Assembly: GCA_016201355.1 (NCBI GenBank) | Contig: JACQCY010000011.1 | Coordinates: 1-44,183, forward strand | Origin: Candidatus Yonathbacteria bacterium | GTDB taxonomy: Bacteria; Patescibacteriota; Minisyncoccia; Phycocordibacterales; UBA1550 | Length of the DNA: 44,183 nt | Reading direction: 5' to 3' | Shown here: positions 1-43,200 of the stretch, in pieces | Numbering within the stretch: position 1 is the stretch's first letter | How the letters are laid out: each line of letters starts with the position of its first letter | The notes under the pieces: model-generated | The model's input: only the letters and a program-made list of their open reading frames with translations | The model's database searches: none | What the model was told of the DNA's origin: nothing | Translations under genes and position numbers: made by a program

Positions 1-132
1 CGGGTCACCGACCATCGTATTAAACAATCGTGGAGCAATATAGAAAAGATATTTTTAGGGAATATTGACGACATTCTTTCCGCGTGCGTGGCAGAGGCGG
101 GGAAGGGGGAGGGGACAGAAAATAGTAAGTAG
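1..132 (+). CDS. 3' end of an unidentified ORF entering from the left window edge (partial)
   Basis: Frame 1 is open from nt 1 to TAG 130-132 (..VTDHRIKQSWSNIEKIFLGNIDDILSACVAEAGKGEGTENSK*). Like other gene ends here it runs straight into an AATAGTAAGTAGAAAATAGAA-type element. No family recognised. Confidence 0.3.
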   Translation, partial: RVTDHRIKQSWSNIEKIFLGNIDDILSACVAEAGKGEGTENSK

Positions 133-176
133 AAAATAGAATAAACCCCGCATTCATTCCACATTCTATATTCAAT
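121..176. repeat. Family-B intergenic AT-rich word repeat (copy 1)
   Basis: The exact 21-mer AATAGTAAGTAGAAAATAGAA lies at 121-141 and recurs at 18597-18617 and 34605-34625. It is followed by partially complementary ATTCCACATTCTATATTC words. Confidence 0.6.
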
Positions 177-7739: not shown

Positions 7740-8834
7740 ATGTTTTTCGTGTGCTATGATGCCCTTATGTCATCTCTCGGAACGATTACCCTTATAAAAA
7801 TATTCATACCTGCCACGCTTTCTTTCGTCCTTGGAATTTTGATGACGCCTCTTTTGATGCGTTATTTTATAAAATATCGGATGTGGAAGAAAAATTCCCG
7901 TAAGAGCAGTGAAAAATCCGTGGCGTTTTTGCAGATCCACAATGAGGAGGGGGAGCTCTCCACTCCGCGCGTAGGGGGGATGGTGGTATGGCTTGCGGTA
8001 GTATTGGTGATTTTTTTATTCGCTATTCTGTCATTAGTTTTGCCAACACCACTCACCTCAAAGCTCAATTTTCTCAGTCGCAACCAAACATTCATACCGC
8101 TCTTTGCATTTATTTCGGCTGCCCTCTTGGGACTCTCTGACGATCTCCTCCAAATATTCGGCAAGGGTGGATATGCAAATGACCACACAATGTATCGCAA
8201 AATAAAAGCGGGGACGATTATTTTAATAGGGTTTCTTATCGGGCTTTGGTTTGTTTTTAAACTTGGCATTACTGCTGTTTTTGTCCCTTTTTATGGCTCT
8301 CTTGAGTTAGGGCTTCTTTTCATTCCGTTTTTCATTACGGTAATGCTTGCGACTTTTTCCACAAGCGTGATTGACGGCATTGATGGACTTTCTGCGGGGG
8401 TTCTTGCTCCAGTATTCATTGGCTATGCGGTGATCGCTTTTTTAAATAATCAGGTTGACCTCGCCGCTTTCTCTTCTGCTGTTGTGGGAGGGACGCTCGC
8501 ATTCCTTTGGTTTAATATTCCGCCCGCGCGATTTTATATGGGGGAAACGGGAATGCTTGCGCTCACGGTCGTTCTCTCTGTCCTCGCTTTTATGACCGAT
8601 ACGGTATTTATTCTCCCTGTCATCGCGCTCCCGCTCGTCGCTACATCTTTTTCGGTTATTGTTCAAATGCTCTCAAAGAGATTTCGGGGAGGTAAAAAAA
8701 TATTTCTCGTCGCGCCACTCCACCACCACTTTGAGGCTATTGGATGGCCTAAATACAAAGTAACGATGCGGTATTGGGTCATCGCGATGGTGTCGGTGGT
8801 GGTTGGGGTAACCCTTGCTCTGTTGAGCAAATAA
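7740..8834 (+). CDS. mraY: Phospho-N-acetylmuramoyl-pentapeptide transferase
   Basis: 364 aa, polytopic. Motifs DDLLQIFG, STSVIDGIDGLSAG, NIPPARFYMGETG and APLHHHFEAIGW. Confidence 0.92.
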   Translation: MFFVCYDALMSSLGTITLIKIFIPATLSFVLGILMTPLLMRYFIKYRMWKKNSRKSSEKSVAFLQIHNEEGELSTPRVGGMVVWLAVVLVIFLFAILSLVLPTPLTSKLNFLSRNQTFIPLFAFISAALLGLSDDLLQIFGKGGYANDHTMYRKIKAGTIILIGFLIGLWFVFKLGITAVFVPFYGSLELGLLFIPFFITVMLATFSTSVIDGIDGLSAGVLAPVFIGYAVIAFLNNQVDLAAFSSAVVGGTLAFLWFNIPPARFYMGETGMLALTVVLSVLAFMTDTVFILPVIALPLVATSFSVIVQMLSKRFRGGKKIFLVAPLHHHFEAIGWPKYKVTMRYWVIAMVSVVVGVTLALLSK

Positions 8835-8944
8835 AATTTTAAATTTCAAATTCTAAATTTTAAATCAATTTTAAATATCTCAATTTTTAAACATTTAGTA
8901 ATTTAGATTTCATTTAAAATTTAAAATTTGTAATTTAAAATTAA
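8835..8944. repeat. Family-A AT-rich quasi-palindromic intergenic element (copy 1)
   Basis: Starts right after the mraY stop. It contains the reverse complement of the 22-mer core at 8919-8940. Block 8889-8942 matches 43144-43197 at 53 of 54 positions. Confidence 0.8.
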
Positions 8945-8950
8945 TTGAAT

Positions 8951-18592: not shown

Positions 18593-18690
18593 GGAAAATA
18601 GTAAGTAGAAAATAGAAGAGGAGATGGGAAATAGAATTTTTGAATTTATTCTACTTGCTACTTTCTAGCTTCTACTTTCTATCCAATATG
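18593..18690. repeat. Family-B word hairpin (copy 2) between divergent dsbA-like and pgi
   Basis: The exact 21-mer lies at 18597-18617. The right half TTCTACTTGCTACTTTCTAGCTTCTACTTTCTA is built from complementary words. Confidence 0.65.
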
Positions 18691-24209: not shown

Positions 24210-24755
24210 ATGGCAAAACAAGAAACAACAGGCGAGCGAAATTGGTACGCCATTCACACTTATGTGGGATATGAAAATGCCGTTCTTCGCAATTTAAAAC
24301 AACGCATTGAGTCGCTCGGTATGGAGGATAAGATTTTCAATGTTCTTATTCCCACTGAGAAAAAAATAAAAGTTACTGCTAATAAGCGGGTTGAAGTTGA
24401 GGAAAAAATTTATCCGGGATATATTTTGGTAGAGATGATCGTTACCGATGATTCATGGTATGTGGTGAGAAATACTCCCCGCGTAACAGGATTTGTGGGA
24501 GCGGGAGTTACCCCCGTGCCTCTTGATAAAAAAGAAGTAGAAGTGCTCTTTAAGAGAATGGAAGCGGGAACACCGAAACATAACATTGATCTTTCTGTCG
24601 GAGATCATGTGACCATTGTTGACGGGCCCTTTAACGGGCTTGAGGGTAAGGTATCTGAAGTTGATAATGAGAAAGGGAAGGCAAAAGTCCTTGTATCAAT
24701 GTTTGGTCGCGAGACGCCGGTAGAGCTCGATTTTTTGCAAATTAAGAAGATATAG
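24210..24755 (+). CDS. nusG: Transcription termination/antitermination factor NusG
   Basis: NGN domain [14 protein letters not shown] and KOW domain [18 protein letters not shown]. Confidence 0.93.
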
Positions 24756-24832
24756 GTATTAATTTTAAATTACAAATTTTAAATTTCAAATGAAGTCTAA
24801 ATGACTAAATATTTAAAACTTAAAATTAGTTA
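24756..24832. repeat. Family-A element (copy 2)
   Basis: The exact 22-mer TTTTAAATTACAAATTTTAAAT lies at 24763-24784, followed by AAATGAAGTCTAAATGACTAAAT as in copy 4. Confidence 0.75.
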
Positions 24833-24861
24833 CTCGCAGAATACTTATTTTTAATGAGAAC

Positions 24862-24890
24862 TTGAAAAAAATGGTAAATTAAGATAGACT
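24862..24890 (+). promoter_or_regulatory. Putative promoter of rplK (TTGAAA-17 nt-TAGACT)
   Basis: TTGAAA 24862-24867, a 17-nt spacer, then TAGACT 24885-24890. Confidence 0.35.
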
Positions 24891-24907
24891 CACTAGCATC
24901 AACTATT

Positions 24908-25327
24908 ATGGCAAAGAAAATAACAAAAAAGGTAAAAGTGCAGATTCCTGCGGGGAAAGCGACGCCGGCGCCTCCCTTGGGCCCCGCTCTCGGGCAGGCA
25001 GGGGTAAACATTGGTGAATTTGTAACAAAATTCAACGCTGCAACAGCAAAACAAATGGGAGATATTTTGCCCGTGGTCATTACCGTGTACGAAGATCGCT
25101 CATTTGATTTTATCGTAAAGACTCCTCCCGCTTCAAATCTGCTCTTTAAAGCGGCAGGTATAGAGAAAGGCGCGAGCAAAAAAGAAACTTTTGCAGGCTC
25201 GGTAAGCAAAGCGCAACTTCGTGAAATAGCCGAGCGCAAAATGCCAGACCTGAGCGCAAATGATGTGGAGGCGGCAATGAAGATTATTGCAGGGTCAGCA
25301 CGCTCTGCCGGGGTTGAGGTGAAATAA
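24908..25327 (+). CDS. rplK: 50S ribosomal protein L11
   Basis: [30 protein letters not shown]. 139 aa. Confidence 0.95.
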
Positions 25328-25328
25328 G

Positions 25329-25433
25329 TAGTAATTTTAAATTACAAATTTTAAATCAATTTTAATTGTCTAAATATTTTTAAATTAAATCATTTGATAT
25401 TCATTTGAAATTTAAAATTTAACACTTAAAATT
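25329..25433. repeat. Family-A element (copy 3)
   Basis: The exact 22-mer lies at 25335-25356. The right half TTTGAAATTTAAAATTTAACACTTAAAATT is partially complementary. Confidence 0.75.
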
Positions 25434-25511
25434 CTTATCTGTACTAAAAGATCCACCATTAGAGTAGCTTCCAATTTTCTAGTTTTTCGCTTTCAGTTTT
25501 TATTTTGAAAC

Positions 25512-31107: not shown

Positions 31108-34100
31108 ATGGAGAATGAGGGGAAAAAACTTTCAAGTATTGCGCAAAGGGAAGAGGAAATCCTCTCTTTTTGGCGTGAGAAAAAAATCTTTGAGAAGACT
31201 CTTGAGCAAACGGAACATGGAGAAGCTTTTTCTTTTTATGATGGACCACCGTTTGCGACCGGAGTCCCTCACTATGGGCATATTGTTACGAGCGCTATAA
31301 AAGACGCGATTCCTCGCTATCAAACAATGTGCGGACGCCATGTTCGTCGTGTGTGGGGGTGGGACTGTCACGGGCTTCCTATCGAGAATCTCATAGAGGG
31401 AGAGCTGGGACTTCCACACAAAAAAGATATTGAGGAGTACGGTATTGGGAAATTTAATGAAGCGGCGCGCGCTTCGGTACTGCGCTACGATTCGTTATGG
31501 AAAGAAATGATTCCGCGTATTGGACGATGGATCGATATGGAGCATTCCTACAAGACGATGGACGCTTCTTATACCGAGTCGGTGTGGTGGGCTTTCAAAA
31601 CTCTGTATGAAAAAGGACTCATCTATCAAGGGTTCAAAGCAATGCAAATTTGCCCGCGCTGTGAGACGACACTCTCAAATAATGAAGTTGCGGACGGGTA
31701 CAAAGATATTACGGATATTTCGGTGACGGTGAAGTTTGAACTCGAAGAATCGAACACCAAAAACCTAACACCTAAAACCTATGTTTTGGCATGGACGACA
31801 ACACCGTGGACACTTCCGGGAAATGTGGCATTAGCGGTGAATTCGGATGAGGAATACATAAAGGTTTCAATAGGAACTGAAAAATATATTTTAGCGAAAG
31901 AACGCGCAGAGAAAATACTTGCAGGGAAAGAATATGAAATTATCTCACGGGTAAAAGGAAAGGATCTTGTTGGTAAGAAATACAAACCAATCTTTGATTA
32001 TTATTCAAAAGACGAATCTCTTGCCAACCATAAAAATGGTTGGAAAATATATGGCGCGGATTTTGTGACAATGGACAGCGGTACGGGGGTGGTACATATT
32101 GCGCCTGCTTTTGGCGAGGACGATATGGCTCTCGGCAAGAAAGAAAATTTGCCATTCATTCAACATATTTCAATGGATGGCATAATGAAAAAAGAGGTGC
32201 GTGATTTCGCCGGTGTTTCTGCAAAACCAAAAACAAAAGAGAAAGACGGACACCAATCGACAGATATTTTAATCATTAAACATCTTGCGGGGGTAGGCGC
32301 GCTCTTTTCAAAAGAAAAAATAATCCACGCATACCCTCATTGTTGGCGATGCGATACCCCACTCCTCAATTACGCCACGGAGTCGTGGTTTGTGAAAGTT
32401 ACCGATCTTAAGGGAAGACTTGTTGAGGAAAACGCAAAGACAAAGTGGGTCCCTGAAAATTTGCGCGACGGTCGTTTTGGTCAGTGGCTCCTAGGCGCGC
32501 GCGATTGGGCAATTTCTCGCTCACGGTTCTGGGGCGCGCCACTGCCGGTATGGAATTGTGATTCTTGTGAAAAGAGAAGCGTCTTTGGTTCGCGAGCAGA
32601 ATTAGCTCAGGCTACCAGAAAATCAGGAAATAAATATTTTGTAATGCGTCATGGAGAAGCTGAAAGCAATAGGGAGCGCATTGTCAGTTCAACTATTGCC
32701 ACGGGCAACAGTCACGGACTTACCGAGAAGGGAAGAAAAGAGGTAAAAGAGGCTAGTCAACGACTCGATCGAGAATCGATACAAATCATCATCTCCTCGC
32801 CTTTTCTTCGTGCAAGACAGACGGCAGAAAGTGTTGCAGATACGCTCGGGCTTAATTCAAAAGAAATAATCATCGACGAACGGCTCAAGGAGATAGACAC
32901 GGGTGTTTTTGACGGTAAATCCATTGATGATTATCGTGGATATTTTGCCTCAATGCGCGAGAAATTTATCAAGCGTCCTGAGAAGGGAGAAAATCTTCTC
33001 GATGTAAAGCGTCGTGTTATGGAGCTTATGGACGAGCTCGAAGAAAAATATCAAGGTAAAAATATTTTACTCGTAACTCATGAATATCCTCTCTGGATGA
33101 TTACCTCAGGAGTAGAAGGAGCGGATGTTGATCGAGCACTCGGAATAAAAGAGGGGAATGATGATTTTATAAAAACGGGAGAAATAAAAGAGATACCTTT
33201 TACCTTATTCCCCCACAATGCTGAATATGAATTTGATATGCATCGTCCCTATATTGATAATGTTCCTGTTGTGTGTTCGTGCGGGGGGAAAATGCTCCGT
33301 GTACCCTATGTCTTTGACTGTTGGTTTGAATCCGGTTCTATGCCGTATGCGCAATTTCATTATCCATTTGAGAACAAGGAATTGTTTGAAAAAAATTTCC
33401 CTGCGAATTTTATTGCCGAGGGAATCGATCAGACGCGCGGATGGTTCTATAATATGCTCAATCTCTCGGTGGGACTTTTTGGAAAAGCTCCCTTTAAAAA
33501 TGTACTCGTGAATGGTCTTGTCCTTGCCGAGGATGGACAGAAGATGTCAAAGCGTCTTAAAAATTATCCAGATCCGCTTGATATTATCAACAGATATGGC
33601 GCAGATGCGATGCGGTATTATCTATTGTCGTCACCGCTCGTTCATGCGGAGGATTTTGCTTTTTCTGAGAAAGGAGTGGATGAGGTGGTAAAGAAAGTGC
33701 TTATGCGTCTTCTCAATGTCCTCTCGTTTTACGAGCTTCATAAGTCAAAGAAGGGTGAATCAAAAAATACCAAAGAAAATATTTTAGATCAATGGATATT
33801 ATCTCGCCTCGCAGAACTTGGCAATGAGATGACGCTCTCCTTGGATAAATATGAACTCGAACGTGCGATAAAACCAATTGGGCTTTTCGTTGACGACCTC
33901 TCCACCTGGTACCTTCGCCGTTCACGGGATCGATTTAAGTCAGACGATGAAGAGGAGCGCACGCAAGCGATAGAAACAACACGAGAAGTATTTTTTGAGT
34001 TTTCAAAATTGATAGCTCCCATAATGCCATTTATGGCGGATCATATTTATTTAAAAATGGAAGGAGAAAAAGAGAGCGTGCATTTGGAAGAATGGCCTGT

Positions 34101-34602
34101 TTTTAGTGAGCCAAACCAAGATGCTCTCGCGTGGATGAAACAAATAAGACAAATTGTTTCCCTAGCTCTTGAGGCTCGCGCAAAAGCTGAGATAAAAGTG
34201 CGCCAACCGCTACACGAGTTAAAAGTTAAAAGTGGAAAGTTGAAAGTGGGATACGCGGAACTTATTAAAGACGAGGTAAATGTAAAAGAAGTCGTATTTG
34301 ACGATGCAATGTCCGAAGAAGTGGAGCTTGATACTATTATTACCCCGGAGCTCAAACAAGAGGGGCAATTTCGCGAGCTTGCGCGCGCGGTGCAAGAGCT
34401 TCGCAAGACAAAAGGACTTACGCCATCGGATATGGCGACACTTGAGATTGGGGCGGACGAAGAGGGACGCGCTCTCGTTGATGCATTTAGCGACGAACTC
34501 AAAAAAACATCACTTCTAAATGAAATTGTGTTTAAAGAGGTGCAAGGCGAGTCAGTGGATGCAAATGGCATTTTGTTTACGATAGCGTTAAGTAGAAAAT
34601 AG
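31108..34602 (+). CDS. ileS: Isoleucine--tRNA ligase (type 2) carrying an inserted histidine-phosphatase domain
   Basis: HIGH = PHYGHIV, editing domain TTPWTLPGN, WAISRSRFWGAPLPVW, FDCWFESGSMPYAQ, EGIDQTRGWFY and KMSKRL. At 1164 aa it is longer than usual because of the insert at 32620-33207. Confidence 0.93.
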   Translation: MENEGKKLSSIAQREEEILSFWREKKIFEKTLEQTEHGEAFSFYDGPPFATGVPHYGHIVTSAIKDAIPRYQTMCGRHVRRVWGWDCHGLPIENLIEGELGLPHKKDIEEYGIGKFNEAARASVLRYDSLWKEMIPRIGRWIDMEHSYKTMDASYTESVWWAFKTLYEKGLIYQGFKAMQICPRCETTLSNNEVADGYKDITDISVTVKFELEESNTKNLTPKTYVLAWTTTPWTLPGNVALAVNSDEEYIKVSIGTEKYILAKERAEKILAGKEYEIISRVKGKDLVGKKYKPIFDYYSKDESLANHKNGWKIYGADFVTMDSGTGVVHIAPAFGEDDMALGKKENLPFIQHISMDGIMKKEVRDFAGVSAKPKTKEKDGHQSTDILIIKHLAGVGALFSKEKIIHAYPHCWRCDTPLLNYATESWFVKVTDLKGRLVEENAKTKWVPENLRDGRFGQWLLGARDWAISRSRFWGAPLPVWNCDSCEKRSVFGSRAELAQATRKSGNKYFVMRHGEAESNRERIVSSTIATGNSHGLTEKGRKEVKEASQRLDRESIQIIISSPFLRARQTAESVADTLGLNSKEIIIDERLKEIDTGVFDGKSIDDYRGYFASMREKFIKRPEKGENLLDVKRRVMELMDELEEKYQGKNILLVTHEYPLWMITSGVEGADVDRALGIKEGNDDFIKTGEIKEIPFTLFPHNAEYEFDMHRPYIDNVPVVCSCGGKMLRVPYVFDCWFESGSMPYAQFHYPFENKELFEKNFPANFIAEGIDQTRGWFYNMLNLSVGLFGKAPFKNVLVNGLVLAEDGQKMSKRLKNYPDPLDIINRYGADAMRYYLLSSPLVHAEDFAFSEKGVDEVVKKVLMRLLNVLSFYELHKSKKGESKNTKENILDQWILSRLAELGNEMTLSLDKYELERAIKPIGLFVDDLSTWYLRRSRDRFKSDDEEERTQAIETTREVFFEFSKLIAPIMPFMADHIYLKMEGEKESVHLEEWPVFSEPNQDALAWMKQIRQIVSLALEARAKAEIKVRQPLHELKVKSGKLKVGYAELIKDEVNVKEVVFDDAMSEEVELDTIITPELKQEGQFRELARAVQELRKTKGLTPSDMATLEIGADEEGRALVDAFSDELKKTSLLNEIVFKEVQGESVDANGILFTIALSRK
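32620..33207 (+). other. In-frame inserted domain inside ileS: histidine phosphatase (phosphoglycerate-mutase-like) superfamily
   Basis: Signature elements in order: YFVMRHGEAESN, SSPFLRARQTAE, ERLKEIDTGVFDG and ILLVTHEYPLWMI. The insert is flanked by collinear IleRS sequence (..SRAELAQATRKS | ..FDMHRPYIDNVP). Confidence 0.75.
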
Positions 34603-34685
34603 TAAATAGTAAGTAGAAAATAGAATAAATTCAAAAATTCTATTTCTCATTCCCTCTTCTACTTACTACTTTCTATTTACTATTT
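34597..34685. repeat. Family-B word hairpin (copy 3) overlapping the ileS stop codon
   Basis: Three perfect stem segments: 34597-34609 with 34673-34685 (13 bp), 34609-34618 with 34657-34666 (10 bp), and 34619-34626 with 34637-34644 (8 bp). The exact 21-mer lies at 34605-34625. Confidence 0.78.
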
Positions 34686-40328: not shown

Positions 40329-41396
40329 ATGCAGACTCATCAAAAAGACACCGTTATTTCCATCACTTCGGGAACGATCATAAAGATCTTCGCTATTATG
40401 TTTGGGTTCTGGGCGCTTTGGGCGCTCCGCGACCTTGTGCTCGTGGTCATTATGGCGGTCATCATCGCGTCTTCTATTGAACCGATGGTAAATTTTTTAG
40501 GCAATTATCACATCCCGCGCGTGCCAGCGGTACTTATCATTTATGTGTTTACGGTGGGTTTGTTTGTCGGCATCTTTTATGCATTTGCTCCGCTCCTGAT
40601 CACCGAGCTTACCGATTTCTCTGAGAAACTCCCCTCCGTCGCGCAGGAACTCAATCTCGGCGCCTTTAGGGGAAACTCCGGCGCCATCAAGAAAGGGGAA
40701 ATGTTCATCGCGCAGGTTTCCGAAGGGGCTTCTCTCCAGGATTTGATTTTTTCTTTTGGTAAAATATTCAGCACCTCAAAGAGCTTCTTTGTAACCGCAG
40801 GGTCTATTTTGGGCGGGTTTTTCAGTTTTATTCTCATTATCATCCTCTCATTTTATTTTGCGGTGCAGAAAAATGGTATTGAAAATTTTTTAAAGATTGT
40901 CATCCCCTTTGACAAGGAAACTTATTTTATAGGTCTCTGGGAGCGTTCAAGAGAAAAGATCGGGAAATGGATGAAAGGACAGCTTCTTTTAGGAATTCTT
41001 ATTTTTGTTCTCGTCTATTTGGGACTCACTATTTTTGGCGTGCCCTATGCGTTTCTCCTCGCGATCCTTGCGGGTGTCCTTGAAATCATCCCTGTTTTCG
41101 GACCGATTATATCCGCAATTCCCGGAATTATTTTCGCTTTCAGCTCCGGCGGGGTGAGTCTTGCCGTCGTTGTTGCGGGATTTTACCTTCTTGTTCAACA
41201 GTTTGAAAGTCACCTCATCTATCCGCTCGTCGTTCGCAAGATTGTCGGGATTCCTCCTATCATGGTCATTCTCTCTTTGATTATTGGATTTGAACTCATC
41301 GGATTTATCGGTATTCTCATCTCGGTTCCCGTGATGGCGGTCATTATGGAGATTGTGGAGGATATTGAAAAAAGTAAAAGTGTCGCGCGCGCTTAA
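40329..41396 (+). CDS. AI-2E family transporter (PerM/UPF0118)
   Basis: 355 aa with about 8 TMs and the characteristic C-terminal region LAILAGVLEIIPVFGPIISAIPG. Confidence 0.82.
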   Translation: MQTHQKDTVISITSGTIIKIFAIMFGFWALWALRDLVLVVIMAVIIASSIEPMVNFLGNYHIPRVPAVLIIYVFTVGLFVGIFYAFAPLLITELTDFSEKLPSVAQELNLGAFRGNSGAIKKGEMFIAQVSEGASLQDLIFSFGKIFSTSKSFFVTAGSILGGFFSFILIIILSFYFAVQKNGIENFLKIVIPFDKETYFIGLWERSREKIGKWMKGQLLLGILIFVLVYLGLTIFGVPYAFLLAILAGVLEIIPVFGPIISAIPGIIFAFSSGGVSLAVVVAGFYLLVQQFESHLIYPLVVRKIVGIPPIMVILSLIIGFELIGFIGILISVPVMAVIMEIVEDIEKSKSVARA

Positions 41397-41397
41397 T

Positions 41398-41520
41398 AGA
41401 AAATAGTAATTTTAAATTACAAGTTTTAAATTACAAATGAAATCTAAATGACTAAATTTTAAAAAATTAAAATATTTAAAATTGATTTAAAATTTAAAAC
41501 TTAAAATTTATAATTTACTG
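41398..41520. repeat. Family-A element (copy 4)
   Basis: A one-mismatch 22-mer (TTTTAAATTACAAGTTTTAAAT) lies at 41410-41431. It shares AAATGAAATCTAAATGACTAAAT with copy 2. The right half AAAATTGATTTAAAATTTAAAACTTAAAATTT is complementary-like. Confidence 0.75.
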
Positions 41521-41537: not shown

Positions 41538-43082
41538 ATGGATAAAAAATTTTACATTACTGCGCCGATTTTTTACGCCAATGCGAAACTCCATATGGGG
41601 CACGCTTATTCACTCGTACTGTCGGATATCCTCGCGCGGTATCATCGTACAATAGGGGAGAAAACTTTTTTTGTTTCGGGAGCCGATGAGCACGGCGACA
41701 AGATCGTCCGCGCGGCGCAAAAAGAGGGTTTGGGACCGCAGGTTTTTGTGAATATTAAATTCGATGAGTTTAAAGAGCTCTCGGGCAAGCTCGGCATCTC
41801 GAACGATTTCTTTGTGCGGACATCGGACAAAGAATGTCATTGGCCCGGCGCTCAAAAACTTTGGCGCGCGCTTCTAGAAGCGGGTGATGTTTACAAGGAT
41901 GCTTATAAAGGTCTTTATTGCGTTGGGTGCGAGGCATTTATCACCGAGCATGAACTCGTAGACGGCAAGTGTCCACATCACGATACGGTTCCCGAGTCCA
42001 TCTCAGAAGAAAATTATTTTTTTAAGCTTTCAAAATATGCTCTGGAAATAAGGCAATTGATCAACGAGCGGAAGCTTAAAATCACTCCACACAGCAAGGC
42101 GAATGAGATGATCGCGCTTATTGATGAGGGGCTTAGTGATGTCAGCATTTCTCGCCCGGAAAAGGAAATTCCTTGGGGAGTTCCTGTTCCTGGTGACTCC
42201 TCTCATTTTATGTATGTATGGTGCGATGCGCTTTCAAGCTACCTTTCTGCTCTCGGATACGGGGGAGAAGACGATACAAACTTTCGTGAATTTTGGCCTG
42301 CAAATGTTCAGGTCATCGGTAAAGATATTATGCGTTTTCATACGCTCCTCTGGCCAGCTCTTCTCCTTTCCGCAAAGCTCCCCCTTCCTCAGGAGATTTT
42401 TGTGCACGGGTTTATCACTTCGGGAGGCAAGAAAATGTCAAAGTCAATCGGTAATGTTCTTGATCCTTATGAATTTATAAACGAATATGGGCTTGATGCT
42501 TTGCGTTACTATCTTGCGCGCGAAGTGGTCCCTACCGAAGACGGGGATTTGACCCACGAGAGATTTAAAGAAATTTATAATGCCAACCTCGCAAACGGCA
42601 TAGGAAATCTGGTCTCTCGCACGCTCAAGATGGCAGAGCAGTATTTTGGAGGAAACATCGCGGGGCAAAGAGAGAGCGTTCCTCCGCTCCGTACGCGCGC
42701 AGTTTTTGAAACTTCTGAGACGGAGATTGGTGGGTTTAATATTCCCTTTATCATTCAAAACAATATCCTTCCTCGTTACCATACTCATATGCAGGGCAAT
42801 GAAATCAATAAAGCGGCTGATGTGGTGTGGGAACTGGTGAGCCACCTCGATCACTTCATCACGGATTATGAACCATTCAAGCTTATAAAAACGGACAAAG
42901 AGATGACGGGAAAAGTTTTATGGGGGGTTATTGAGGGGATATTGCAGATTACGGATATGCTTATTCCCCTAATGCCCGATACGGCGCAAAAAATACGAGA
43001 GCTTATTAAAACAGAGGAGAAAGATGGAGAAACAACTTTTATCACAAAGACACCGGCAGAACCGTTGTTTGGTAGAAAATAG
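41538..43082 (+). CDS. metG: Methionine--tRNA ligase (no C-terminal tRNA-binding domain)
   Basis: HIGH-type ANAKLHMGHAYS, KMSKSIGN, and zinc knuckle CVGC..CPHH. Confidence 0.93.
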   Translation: MDKKFYITAPIFYANAKLHMGHAYSLVLSDILARYHRTIGEKTFFVSGADEHGDKIVRAAQKEGLGPQVFVNIKFDEFKELSGKLGISNDFFVRTSDKECHWPGAQKLWRALLEAGDVYKDAYKGLYCVGCEAFITEHELVDGKCPHHDTVPESISEENYFFKLSKYALEIRQLINERKLKITPHSKANEMIALIDEGLSDVSISRPEKEIPWGVPVPGDSSHFMYVWCDALSSYLSALGYGGEDDTNFREFWPANVQVIGKDIMRFHTLLWPALLLSAKLPLPQEIFVHGFITSGGKKMSKSIGNVLDPYEFINEYGLDALRYYLAREVVPTEDGDLTHERFKEIYNANLANGIGNLVSRTLKMAEQYFGGNIAGQRESVPPLRTRAVFETSETEIGGFNIPFIIQNNILPRYHTHMQGNEINKAADVVWELVSHLDHFITDYEPFKLIKTDKEMTGKVLWGVIEGILQITDMLIPLMPDTAQKIRELIKTEEKDGETTFITKTPAEPLFGRK

Positions 43083-43084
43083 CT

Positions 43085-43200
43085 GTAACAATTTTAAGTT
43101 TTAAATTACAAATTTTAAATCAGTTTTAAATATTTTAATTTTAAAACATTTAGTAATTTGGATTTCATTTAAAATTTAAAATTTGTAATTTAAAATTCAT
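43085..43200. repeat. Family-A element (copy 5), 22-bp perfect stem
   Basis: 43099-43120 is the exact reverse complement of 43174-43195. Block 43144-43197 matches 8889-8942 at 53 of 54 positions. Confidence 0.85.

Follow-up and report, generated by a model that had tools for sequence, protein, structure and literature searches.

The AT-rich palindromic repeats found between the genes of this genome appear to be the gene-less, MITE-like form of a hairpin cassette of the rRNA intervening sequence (IVS) type, a reading to which we assign a probability of roughly 70%. The window, by which we mean the whole 44,183-nt stretch of DNA that was analyzed, is contig 6 of genome G000, an assembly of 580 kb in 57 contigs that is 97% complete and has 43% G+C. 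It holds five copies of the element, here called A to E (Table 1). The element is short, non-coding, bounded by terminal inverted repeats, and dispersed in many copies, as a MITE is, and between species it shows presence/absence polymorphism at orthologous sites. Scores in bits refer to R1, a sequence model of the element, and "C" numbers denote contigs of G000. Comparisons cover 28 congeners and 150 genomes sampled evenly from the phylum; the proteins that flank element loci in the closest congener, G020 (524 kb compared), are ∼80 to 90% identical to those of G000.

The element is an imperfect palindrome of ∼100 to 108 nt, about 90% A+T, composed of inverted arrays of TTTTAAA-type heptamers. 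Its arms are runs of 7-nt units (TTTTAAA, TTACAAA, TTTCAAA, and similar) that differ in number among copies, and its interior is asymmetric, with a AAATCAATTTTAAAT block on one side and a ATTTAGTMATTTAGATTTCATTT block on the other, so that each copy has an orientation. An earlier note on the window had described the family through the 22-mer TTTTAAATTACAAATTTTAAAT as its core. This 22-mer is real, but because the full element spans ∼100 to 108 nt it represents only one arm of the longer palindrome. All coordinates given for it were borne out, with exact occurrences on the plus strand at 24763-24784, at 25335-25356, and in the left arm of copy E, exact occurrences on the minus strand at 8919-8940 and in the right arm of copy E, and a one-mismatch copy at 41410-41431; at up to 3 mismatches the window contains 9 matches versus 0.01 expected. 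The same holds for the perfect complementarity of the two 22-mers in the copy at 43.1 kb, which enclose a 53-nt interior, for the 54-nt blocks at 8889-8942 and 43144-43197, whose sole difference is A at 8905 against G at 43160, and for the sequence AAATGAA(G/A)TCTAAATGACTAAAT common to the copies numbered 2 and 4 there. The genes upstream of the elements were also correctly named (a glycosyltransferase-4/MraY-type gene and those for NusG, L11, an AI-2E transporter, and MetRS), and the elements start 3 to 14 nt past their stop codons. The description "AT-only" was a slight overstatement, since the copies are mostly A+T but each ∼108-nt copy contains 9 to 11 G+C. A scan of the window against Rfam at the gathering threshold found a tRNA alone.

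Table 1. Copies of the element in the window, arms of copy E, Y1 transposase genes elsewhere in the genome, and arm heptamers of PF05635 protein subclades in the genus
Feature	Position	Strand	R1 score (bits)	RNA fold	Surroundings and remarks
Copy A, full-length	8835-8942	+	72.7	-23.2 kcal/mol, z -5.5, whole element spanned	Interior in forward sense of the cassette; stop of MraY-type gene at 8834, start of asparagine-synthase-like GATase gene at 8945
Copy B, truncated	24761-24830	-	41.5 over model positions 31-109	Weak, z -1.6 to -1.8	Reverse sense; one arm and a 3'-type interior block; nusG stop at 24755
Copy C, full-length but decayed	25331-25433	+	60.7	z -2.1	rplK stop at 25327; 81 nt ahead of CYTH gene; outward TTGAAA-16-TAAAAT match at 25405-25432
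Copy D, full-length, reverse sense	41408-41515	-	69.5 (- strand)		AI-2E transporter stop at 41396; metG start at 41538
Copy E	43090-43197	+	69.8	-23.4 kcal/mol, z -6.4	Occupies whole spacer between metG (stop 43082) and tatD (start 43211)
Copy E, left arm	43099-43120	+			Exact 22-mer; three heptamer units, TTTTAAA TTACAAA TTTTAAA T
Copy E, right arm	43174-43195	-			Perfect reverse complement of left arm
Y1 (HUH) transposase gene	C19:3313-3984				Outside window
Y1 (HUH) transposase gene	C52:3408-4082				Outside window
Y1 (HUH) transposase gene	C11:96-977				Outside window
Subclade MNYDLEERTAKF					Arm heptamer A/T only
Subclade MRIEKFEDI					Arm heptamer (G/A)TAAAGT
Subclade ..NNSKI.AFTDLIVWQE					Arm heptamer GGAATAT / GGAACAC
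Subclade MQTQNKKFRFRQF					Arm heptamer TGACAAT
Subclade MSQTKSFRDL					Arm heptamer TAGAAAA
Subclade ITSYKDL					Arm heptamer TAGTTTG
Subclade MTEVNLGINSF					Arm heptamer GTTTTAG

Full-length copies are predicted to form one hairpin across the whole element, with a perfect stem of 22 to 24 bp in copy E and up to 48 pairs (-33 kcal/mol) in the copy at C4:3349, and the fold z-score lies below -3 at 20 of 35 loci; folding is weak in copies that are truncated or decayed (B, C, and D, for example). RNAalifold returned no column-conserved consensus structure for 20 aligned copies because the arms pair in shifted heptamer registers, and the copies were therefore folded individually. A role as terminator or mRNA stabilizer, one of the possibilities raised in the earlier note, draws no support from a comparison of sense and antisense folding or from a terminator scan. 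Antisense RNA folds better than sense RNA at 19 of the 29 co-directional loci (19 versus 10, p = 0.009), so there is no sign of selection for a sense-strand RNA hairpin, and the scan of four window copies (B to E) gave no match. The stems are of A-T pairs only, which is not the GC-rich stem followed by a T-run that defines an intrinsic terminator. Both ends of the element carry outward matches to TTKAAA-16/17-TAWAAT, but AT-only DNA can be expected to contain promoter-like hexamers of this kind, and for that reason we do not count them as evidence.

The family extends well beyond the window. An iterated nhmmer search of the genome recovered 35 loci, and a sequence-only covariance model gave 79 strand matches at ∼44 loci. 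The family accounts for ∼0.7% of the genome and, by gene calls from a crude ORF picker, occupies ∼15% of spacers of at least 60 nt. All loci are intergenic with respect to protein genes, and 30 of 34 lie between co-directional genes. The elements hug the upstream gene: 22 of 30 start within 15 nt of its stop codon, but at the other end the downstream start lies that close for only 9 (Wilcoxon p = 0.048). Their orientation relative to transcription is random (7 forward, 10 reverse). The boundaries of ∼15 full-length copies show no direct target duplication, and flank matches there merely extend the palindrome; of the two signs of mobility that the earlier note had proposed to look for, gain and loss between species was seen and target-site duplication was not.

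Heptameric organization is a wider property of this genome, in which period-7 tandem arrays number 51, versus 0 to 2 at periods 5, 6, 8, 10, and 11, and come in many sequence flavors of which A/T is the commonest. One such array, AGTTAAAAGTTAAAAGTGGAAAGTTGAAAGT at 34217-34247 of the window, falls within ileS (reading frame 31108-34602), close to the 3' end. The stop-codon-rich "family B" hairpins of the window (121-141, 18597-18617, and 34597-34685) consist of TAGAAAA/TAGTAAA heptamer arrays and are another flavor of the same class as the AT element. In congeners G001 and G002, PF05635 genes of the MSQTKSFRDL subclade have the TAGAAAA flavor at their flanks; no PF05635 gene of that subclade was found in G000.

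Comparison with relatives shows gains and losses of copies from one species to another. The exact subfamily is all but confined to G000, with 41 matches at up to 2 mismatches versus 0 to 2 in any of the 28 congeners, and R1 scores reach 73 bits in G000 and at most 35 bits in congeners. A more diverged A/T subfamily, found in G000 on C9, C23, C38, C57, and others, is scattered through roughly ten congeners. At all 20 loci (19 spacers) whose flanks are syntenic in G020, the element is absent there; ∼6 of the G020 spacers are short and empty and ∼9 hold hairpins of other heptamers. Among the latter is a four-helix-bundle cassette of the GGAATAT flavor at the place where G000 carries the remnant of an A/T cassette on C32. 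The gene order permease-metG-tatD is kept across the genus, with both spacers 1 to 50 nt long and empty in most species: the spacer orthologous to that of copy D measures 15 to 50 nt and is empty in most congeners, G020 included, and that orthologous to copy E's measures 1 to 40 nt in most congeners and 29 nt in G020. Copies B and C bracket rplK (24756-25511 of the window), and the nusG-rplK spacer of G020 has a TGACAAC-flavored hairpin in place of the element; with copies here and that hairpin in G020, the nusG-rplK junction is a recurrent landing site. The rpsJ-rplC spacer, compared in 25 species, has an A/T element directly past the rpsJ stop in G000 and G044 and other hairpin families or nothing elsewhere, with a conserved rplC leader following in every species. 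At a greater distance, R1 matches at E ≤ 1e-5 occur in 24 of the 150 sampled phylum genomes, with independent bursts. An exact-protein look-up of RplK retrieved no other contigs, and a 30-mer from the 3' end of metG had no match in metagenome contigs.

Absent at syntenic loci of the closest species and patchy in the genus and across the phylum, the family is mobile-like in its distribution, which agrees with the earlier description of a dispersed, recently copied MITE/REP-like family; it is neither confined to the spacers of the window nor strictly orthologous and vertically inherited in relatives. We note separately that the spacer upstream of metG contains a conserved ∼110-nt leader in many congeners (L016, L021, L025, L027, L028, L029, L033, and L034) that is absent from G000. 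A long-range stem within it, CCCGTTAGAAGTTT...AAACTTCTAACGGG, extends to the metG start codon, and the leader may be a regulatory RNA.

A probable identity of the element emerges from its longer relatives. A search for the exact 22-mer in a collection of genomes from 185,579 species, which is biased in ascertainment towards identical arms, found it in 58 stretches, mostly from CPR lineages and spread over many phylum-level groups, and in these it sits in the same ∼100-nt palindrome. Some of the foreign half-elements are followed by a gene whose product starts M..YDLEERT.KF and belongs to PF05635 (23S_rRNA_IVP, an S23p/Avd-like four-helix bundle). This family has four matches in G000. An intact 115-aa gene (C38:6262-6609) is enclosed exactly by two element halves of the diverged A/T subfamily, and its product reaches 58 bits, above the PF05635 cut-off of 33.8, with a match to PDB 2RLD at E = 1e-15; an internally deleted gene (C32:3955-4312) lies between halves of the window's own subfamily, including the exact 22-mer. 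At four foreign CPR loci (L091, L104, L123, and L124), a PF05635 gene with 58 to 69% identity to the C38 protein is found within 58 nt of the 22-mer, and the cassette of L123 is complete, 444 bp long with a perfect 22-mer at either end. Copy E aligns to both ends of this cassette, at 54 of 66 positions with the 5' end and 52 of 61 with the 3' end. The 5' alignment is in the reverse sense of the cassette because the arms are palindromic, and the 3' alignment takes in the ATTTAGTAATTTGGATTTCATTT block just past the stop codon. Therefore, judging from these alignments, the solo element of ∼100 nt corresponds to the two ends of a cassette, 5' and 3', joined to each other and lacking the ORF between them. 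Either the ORF was lost from the cassette or cargo was inserted into the hairpin; the relation may have arisen in either direction. The window's five copies are all of the gene-less form, with no PF05635 ORF in the loop.

Arms and proteins vary together. The genus contains 26 PF05635 genes, nearly all flanked by inverted heptamer arrays, and the repeated unit follows the subclade of the protein (Table 1). Such co-variation could reflect joint descent only, without any binding of one by the other. Of the genomes tested, 4 of 5 with a burst of elements have a C38-type gene with A/T arms, versus 0 of 5 without hits, a small sample in which relatives are not independent. Within the genus, solo copies are only loosely linked to the gene: G013 has a cassette without solo copies by R1, and G022 has solo copies without a PF05635 gene. 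The cassettes carry no transposase gene. Elsewhere in G000, a reverse-transcriptase ORF that runs off the end of its contig (C31:2219-2779) contains LGNLTSQ and YADD motifs such as occur in diversity-generating retroelements; the assembled part shows no PF05635 gene beside it.

One copy interrupts an rRNA gene. Contig 57 begins with the 3' part of the 16S rRNA gene (positions 1-668). There, the tip loop of helix 40, at SSU model position ∼1160, is replaced by a 150-nt insertion that contains a gene-less A/T element (C57:252-358) and folds with -65.5 kcal/mol (z -9). The helix-40 tip of G016 also holds an A/T element, 90% identical over 421 nt, and the same tip carries a hairpin of GGAAAGT/AGAAAGT heptamers in G002 and of GCTGGTA heptamers in G009. 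It is short, with 22 to 42 nt between aligned 16S flanks, in G006, G011, G012, G015, G017, G023, and G044, and the four of these tips that were read directly (G006, G011, G023, and G044) have a short native loop or helix extension and no heptamer hairpin. A single rRNA site, filled in some congeners and empty in others, has received gene-less hairpins of three flavors, and the family thus includes a true rRNA intervening sequence. The copies in the window are relatives of IVSs rather than IVSs in the strict sense, because all five are intergenic. An ORF for a LAGLIDADG-type homing endonuclease (C57:975-1439) follows the 16S rRNA gene, ∼300 nt beyond its 3' end.

IVSs, known since ∼1990, interrupt 16S and 23S rRNA genes as stem-loops, which RNase III excises without religation; their origin, their mobility, and the role of S23p are still regarded as open (PMC4990558). 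The IVS of Coxiella burnetii has a 28-bp terminal stem and tandem GACAGAT heptamers, at the first of which RNase III cuts, upstream of a decaying S23p ORF (PMC4990558). The family described here shares with S23p-type 23S IVSs of Coxiella and Leptospira (PMC4990558) a long terminal stem, heptamer arms, a four-helix-bundle ORF in the loop of the cassette, a site at an rRNA helix tip (for one copy, 16S helix 40), and a sporadic distribution suggesting horizontal spread. ORF decay is likewise common to both, as the remnant on C32 here and as reductive evolution in Coxiella (PMC4990558). It differs from S23p-type IVSs in that most copies lie in spacers between protein genes and lack an ORF, that the family has reached ∼40 copies in one 580-kb genome, and that the arms are almost pure A/T. 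In CPR rRNA genes, both PF05635 ORFs and short IVS-like inserts have been reported (PMC11270868). Like the ORF-less 23S IVSs of enterobacteria and Campylobacter and the short CPR inserts, our elements are stem-loops of ∼100 to 150 nt that can replace a helix tip and are present or absent among close relatives; those reports concern rRNA genes only and describe no intergenic family, heptamer arms, or tie between short inserts and PF05635 (PMC11270868).

The same observations bear on the possibility that the element is a host punctuation signal, such as a bidirectional terminator, RNase III site, or portable promoter, that arose in situ and does not move, with PF05635 genes and GC hairpins as cargo in its loop. 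The proximity to upstream stop codons and the outward promoter-like hexamers would suit such a signal, as would the three kinds of apex content (nothing, a PF05635 gene, or a GC hairpin) and the AT element at rpsJ-rplC that G000 shares with G044. Against it, the nearest species has the element at none of the 20 syntenic loci, and many of the orthologous spacers measure just 1 to 40 nt, so the genes work without the element. Random orientation, the lack of a GC-rich stem or of any terminator-scan match at the elements, the chance expectation of promoter-like matches in AT-only DNA, and the agreement of heptamer flavor with PF05635 protein subclade all argue in the same direction, and we consider the punctuation explanation unlikely.

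A second alternative is that the element is a REP/REPIN mobilized in trans by a RAYT-like Y1 (HUH) transposase of this genome. The genome does encode three Y1_Tnp genes (Table 1) whose best NCBIfam match is the model for REP-associated tyrosine transposases, below its curated cut-off, and the element resembles REPs in being palindromic, intergenic, and free of target duplications; a GC hairpin resembling the RAYTs' own REP is also nested in or abuts several AT elements. The genes are, however, flanked by other hairpins, namely TTACCAAGGCAAGACC... and TTACCAAGGCAAGACCTTTGTAA... at C19, GTTGAAGCCTGACTTCAAC at C52, and CCCTTGGTAA repeats upstream of the gene on C11. Because GC-containing hairpins and not AT elements flank all three, the RAYT link was rejected: a REP/RAYT-type system is present but separate from the AT element. 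Across phyla the AT arms travel with PF05635 genes instead, and the element departs from REPs in its length of ∼100 nt, its heptamer arrays, and its want of a conserved 5' tetranucleotide. Mobilization by these transposases is accordingly quite improbable, and the earlier label "REP/MITE-like" holds for a dispersed, recently copied repeat but not for a REP in the RAYT sense; the RAYT-like genes that it had proposed to search for do exist but lack AT elements at their flanks.

The three Y1 genes with hairpins of their own look like a REP-RAYT arrangement in a 580-kb CPR genome. A related GC-rich hairpin family, AGAAG-TTACCAAGGGCGGGCC-(conserved loop TTAATGCATCACTCCCC)-GGCCCGCCCTTGGTAA-CTTCT, occupies ∼20 loci in G000 (for example, C4:2967-3017, C9:1147-1197, C30:2963-3013, and C53:10977-11027), and some of its copies have A- and T-tracts like those of bidirectional terminators. 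These hairpins sit at the apex of, or abut, several A/T elements, as at C30:2911-3050.

Descent from a DDE-transposase insertion sequence as a classical MITE, for instance from an IS630/Tc1-like element with a TA target, would fit the terminal inverted repeats, small size, AT-richness, and many copies but is highly improbable: the 97%-complete genome gave no match to rve or DDE_Tnp_1, no full-length copy shows a direct target duplication, and the only longer relatives carry a four-helix-bundle gene and no transposase. A TnpB-type zinc ribbon gave a sub-threshold match only, inside a 676-aa ORF.

Two further kinds of repeat invite comparison. The Correia elements of Neisseria (CREE/NEMIS) are palindromic MITE-like repeats of ∼100 to 155 bp between co-transcribed genes, with 26-bp terminal inverted repeats, a TA target duplication, an IHF site, normal base composition, and outward promoter-like ends, and their hairpin transcripts are cut by RNase III. 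To our knowledge, they have no heptamer arrays, associated four-helix-bundle gene, or rRNA copies. The AT element resembles them in size, palindromic form, location in spacers, and promoter-like ends and differs in its heptamer arrays, its link to a PF05635 gene, its rRNA copy, and the absence of a visible target duplication. Compared with REP/REPIN-RAYT systems, it is likewise palindromic, intergenic, and without target duplication in a genome that has RAYT-like genes, but it is longer, built of heptamers, and co-occurs with PF05635, and the RAYT genes have different hairpins at their flanks. Heptamer arrays of GGGAATC in Xanthomonas and GGGGAYT in Nostoc are over-represented between co-directional ORFs within 50 bp of stop codons and are transcribed (PMC4692102). 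The AT element is like them in its tandem 7-nt units and its position in co-directional spacers near stop codons; those arrays were described as direct and G-quadruplex-forming, with no emphasis on inverted pairing and no link to a protein family, whereas the units here are A/T and paired in a hairpin (PMC4692102).

Returning to the IVS-type cassette, the transcribed element is probably cut by RNase III. Such excision has been shown for the Coxiella IVS, and we infer it here by analogy. Once transcribed, the arms would pair into an A-U duplex of 22 to 48 bp that RNase III would cut as it does in rRNA IVSs, and cleavage of this kind would account for insertions being tolerated both within rRNA and within operons, rpsJ-rplC and nusG-rplK among them. 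Transcription of the downstream gene may in addition be restored by the outward -35/-10-like hexamers that both ends carry. The genome has an RNase III gene, rnc, at C41:10787-11182. An A/T element (C41:10600-10696) lies ∼90 nt upstream of this gene, an arrangement that recalls the E. coli rnc operon, whose leader hairpin is cleaved by RNase III.

What moves the elements is a matter for speculation. The four-helix-bundle protein is pointed to because arms and gene descend together and the gene is associated with bursts; we know of no enzymatic or transposase activity in PF05635 proteins. Our guess is that the protein of the cassette recognizes its own heptamer arrays and acts in trans together with host functions. 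In its general form, which we put forward tentatively and regard as more doubtful than probable, this would make PF05635 proteins sequence-specific readers of their own heptamer arrays that drive a transposase-less movement of hairpin cassettes into the tips of hairpins already in place, with gene-less arms amplified in trans to MITE-like bursts. The targets would then be rRNA helix loops, the loops of other elements, and structures just past stop codons.

As far as the literature could be searched, we found neither the intergenic family nor its connection with PF05635 described. In this genome, the IVS design behaves as a dispersed, amplifying repeat, with ∼40 gene-less copies, one of them in the 16S rRNA gene, whose arms are common with those of two resident cassettes. 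The finding explains part of the short unclassified insertions in CPR rRNA genes, and it makes the hypothesis of a protein that reads its own heptamers, coupled to a hairpin cut by RNase III, concrete and directly testable. Given ∼100-nt hairpins in ∼15% of the longer spacers of a minimal genome, effects on operon transcripts are likely. Should PF05635 proteins prove to be such readers, rRNA intervening sequences, the excess of 7-nt repeats in bacteria, and the AT-rich hairpins of the CPR would be one class of mobile element.
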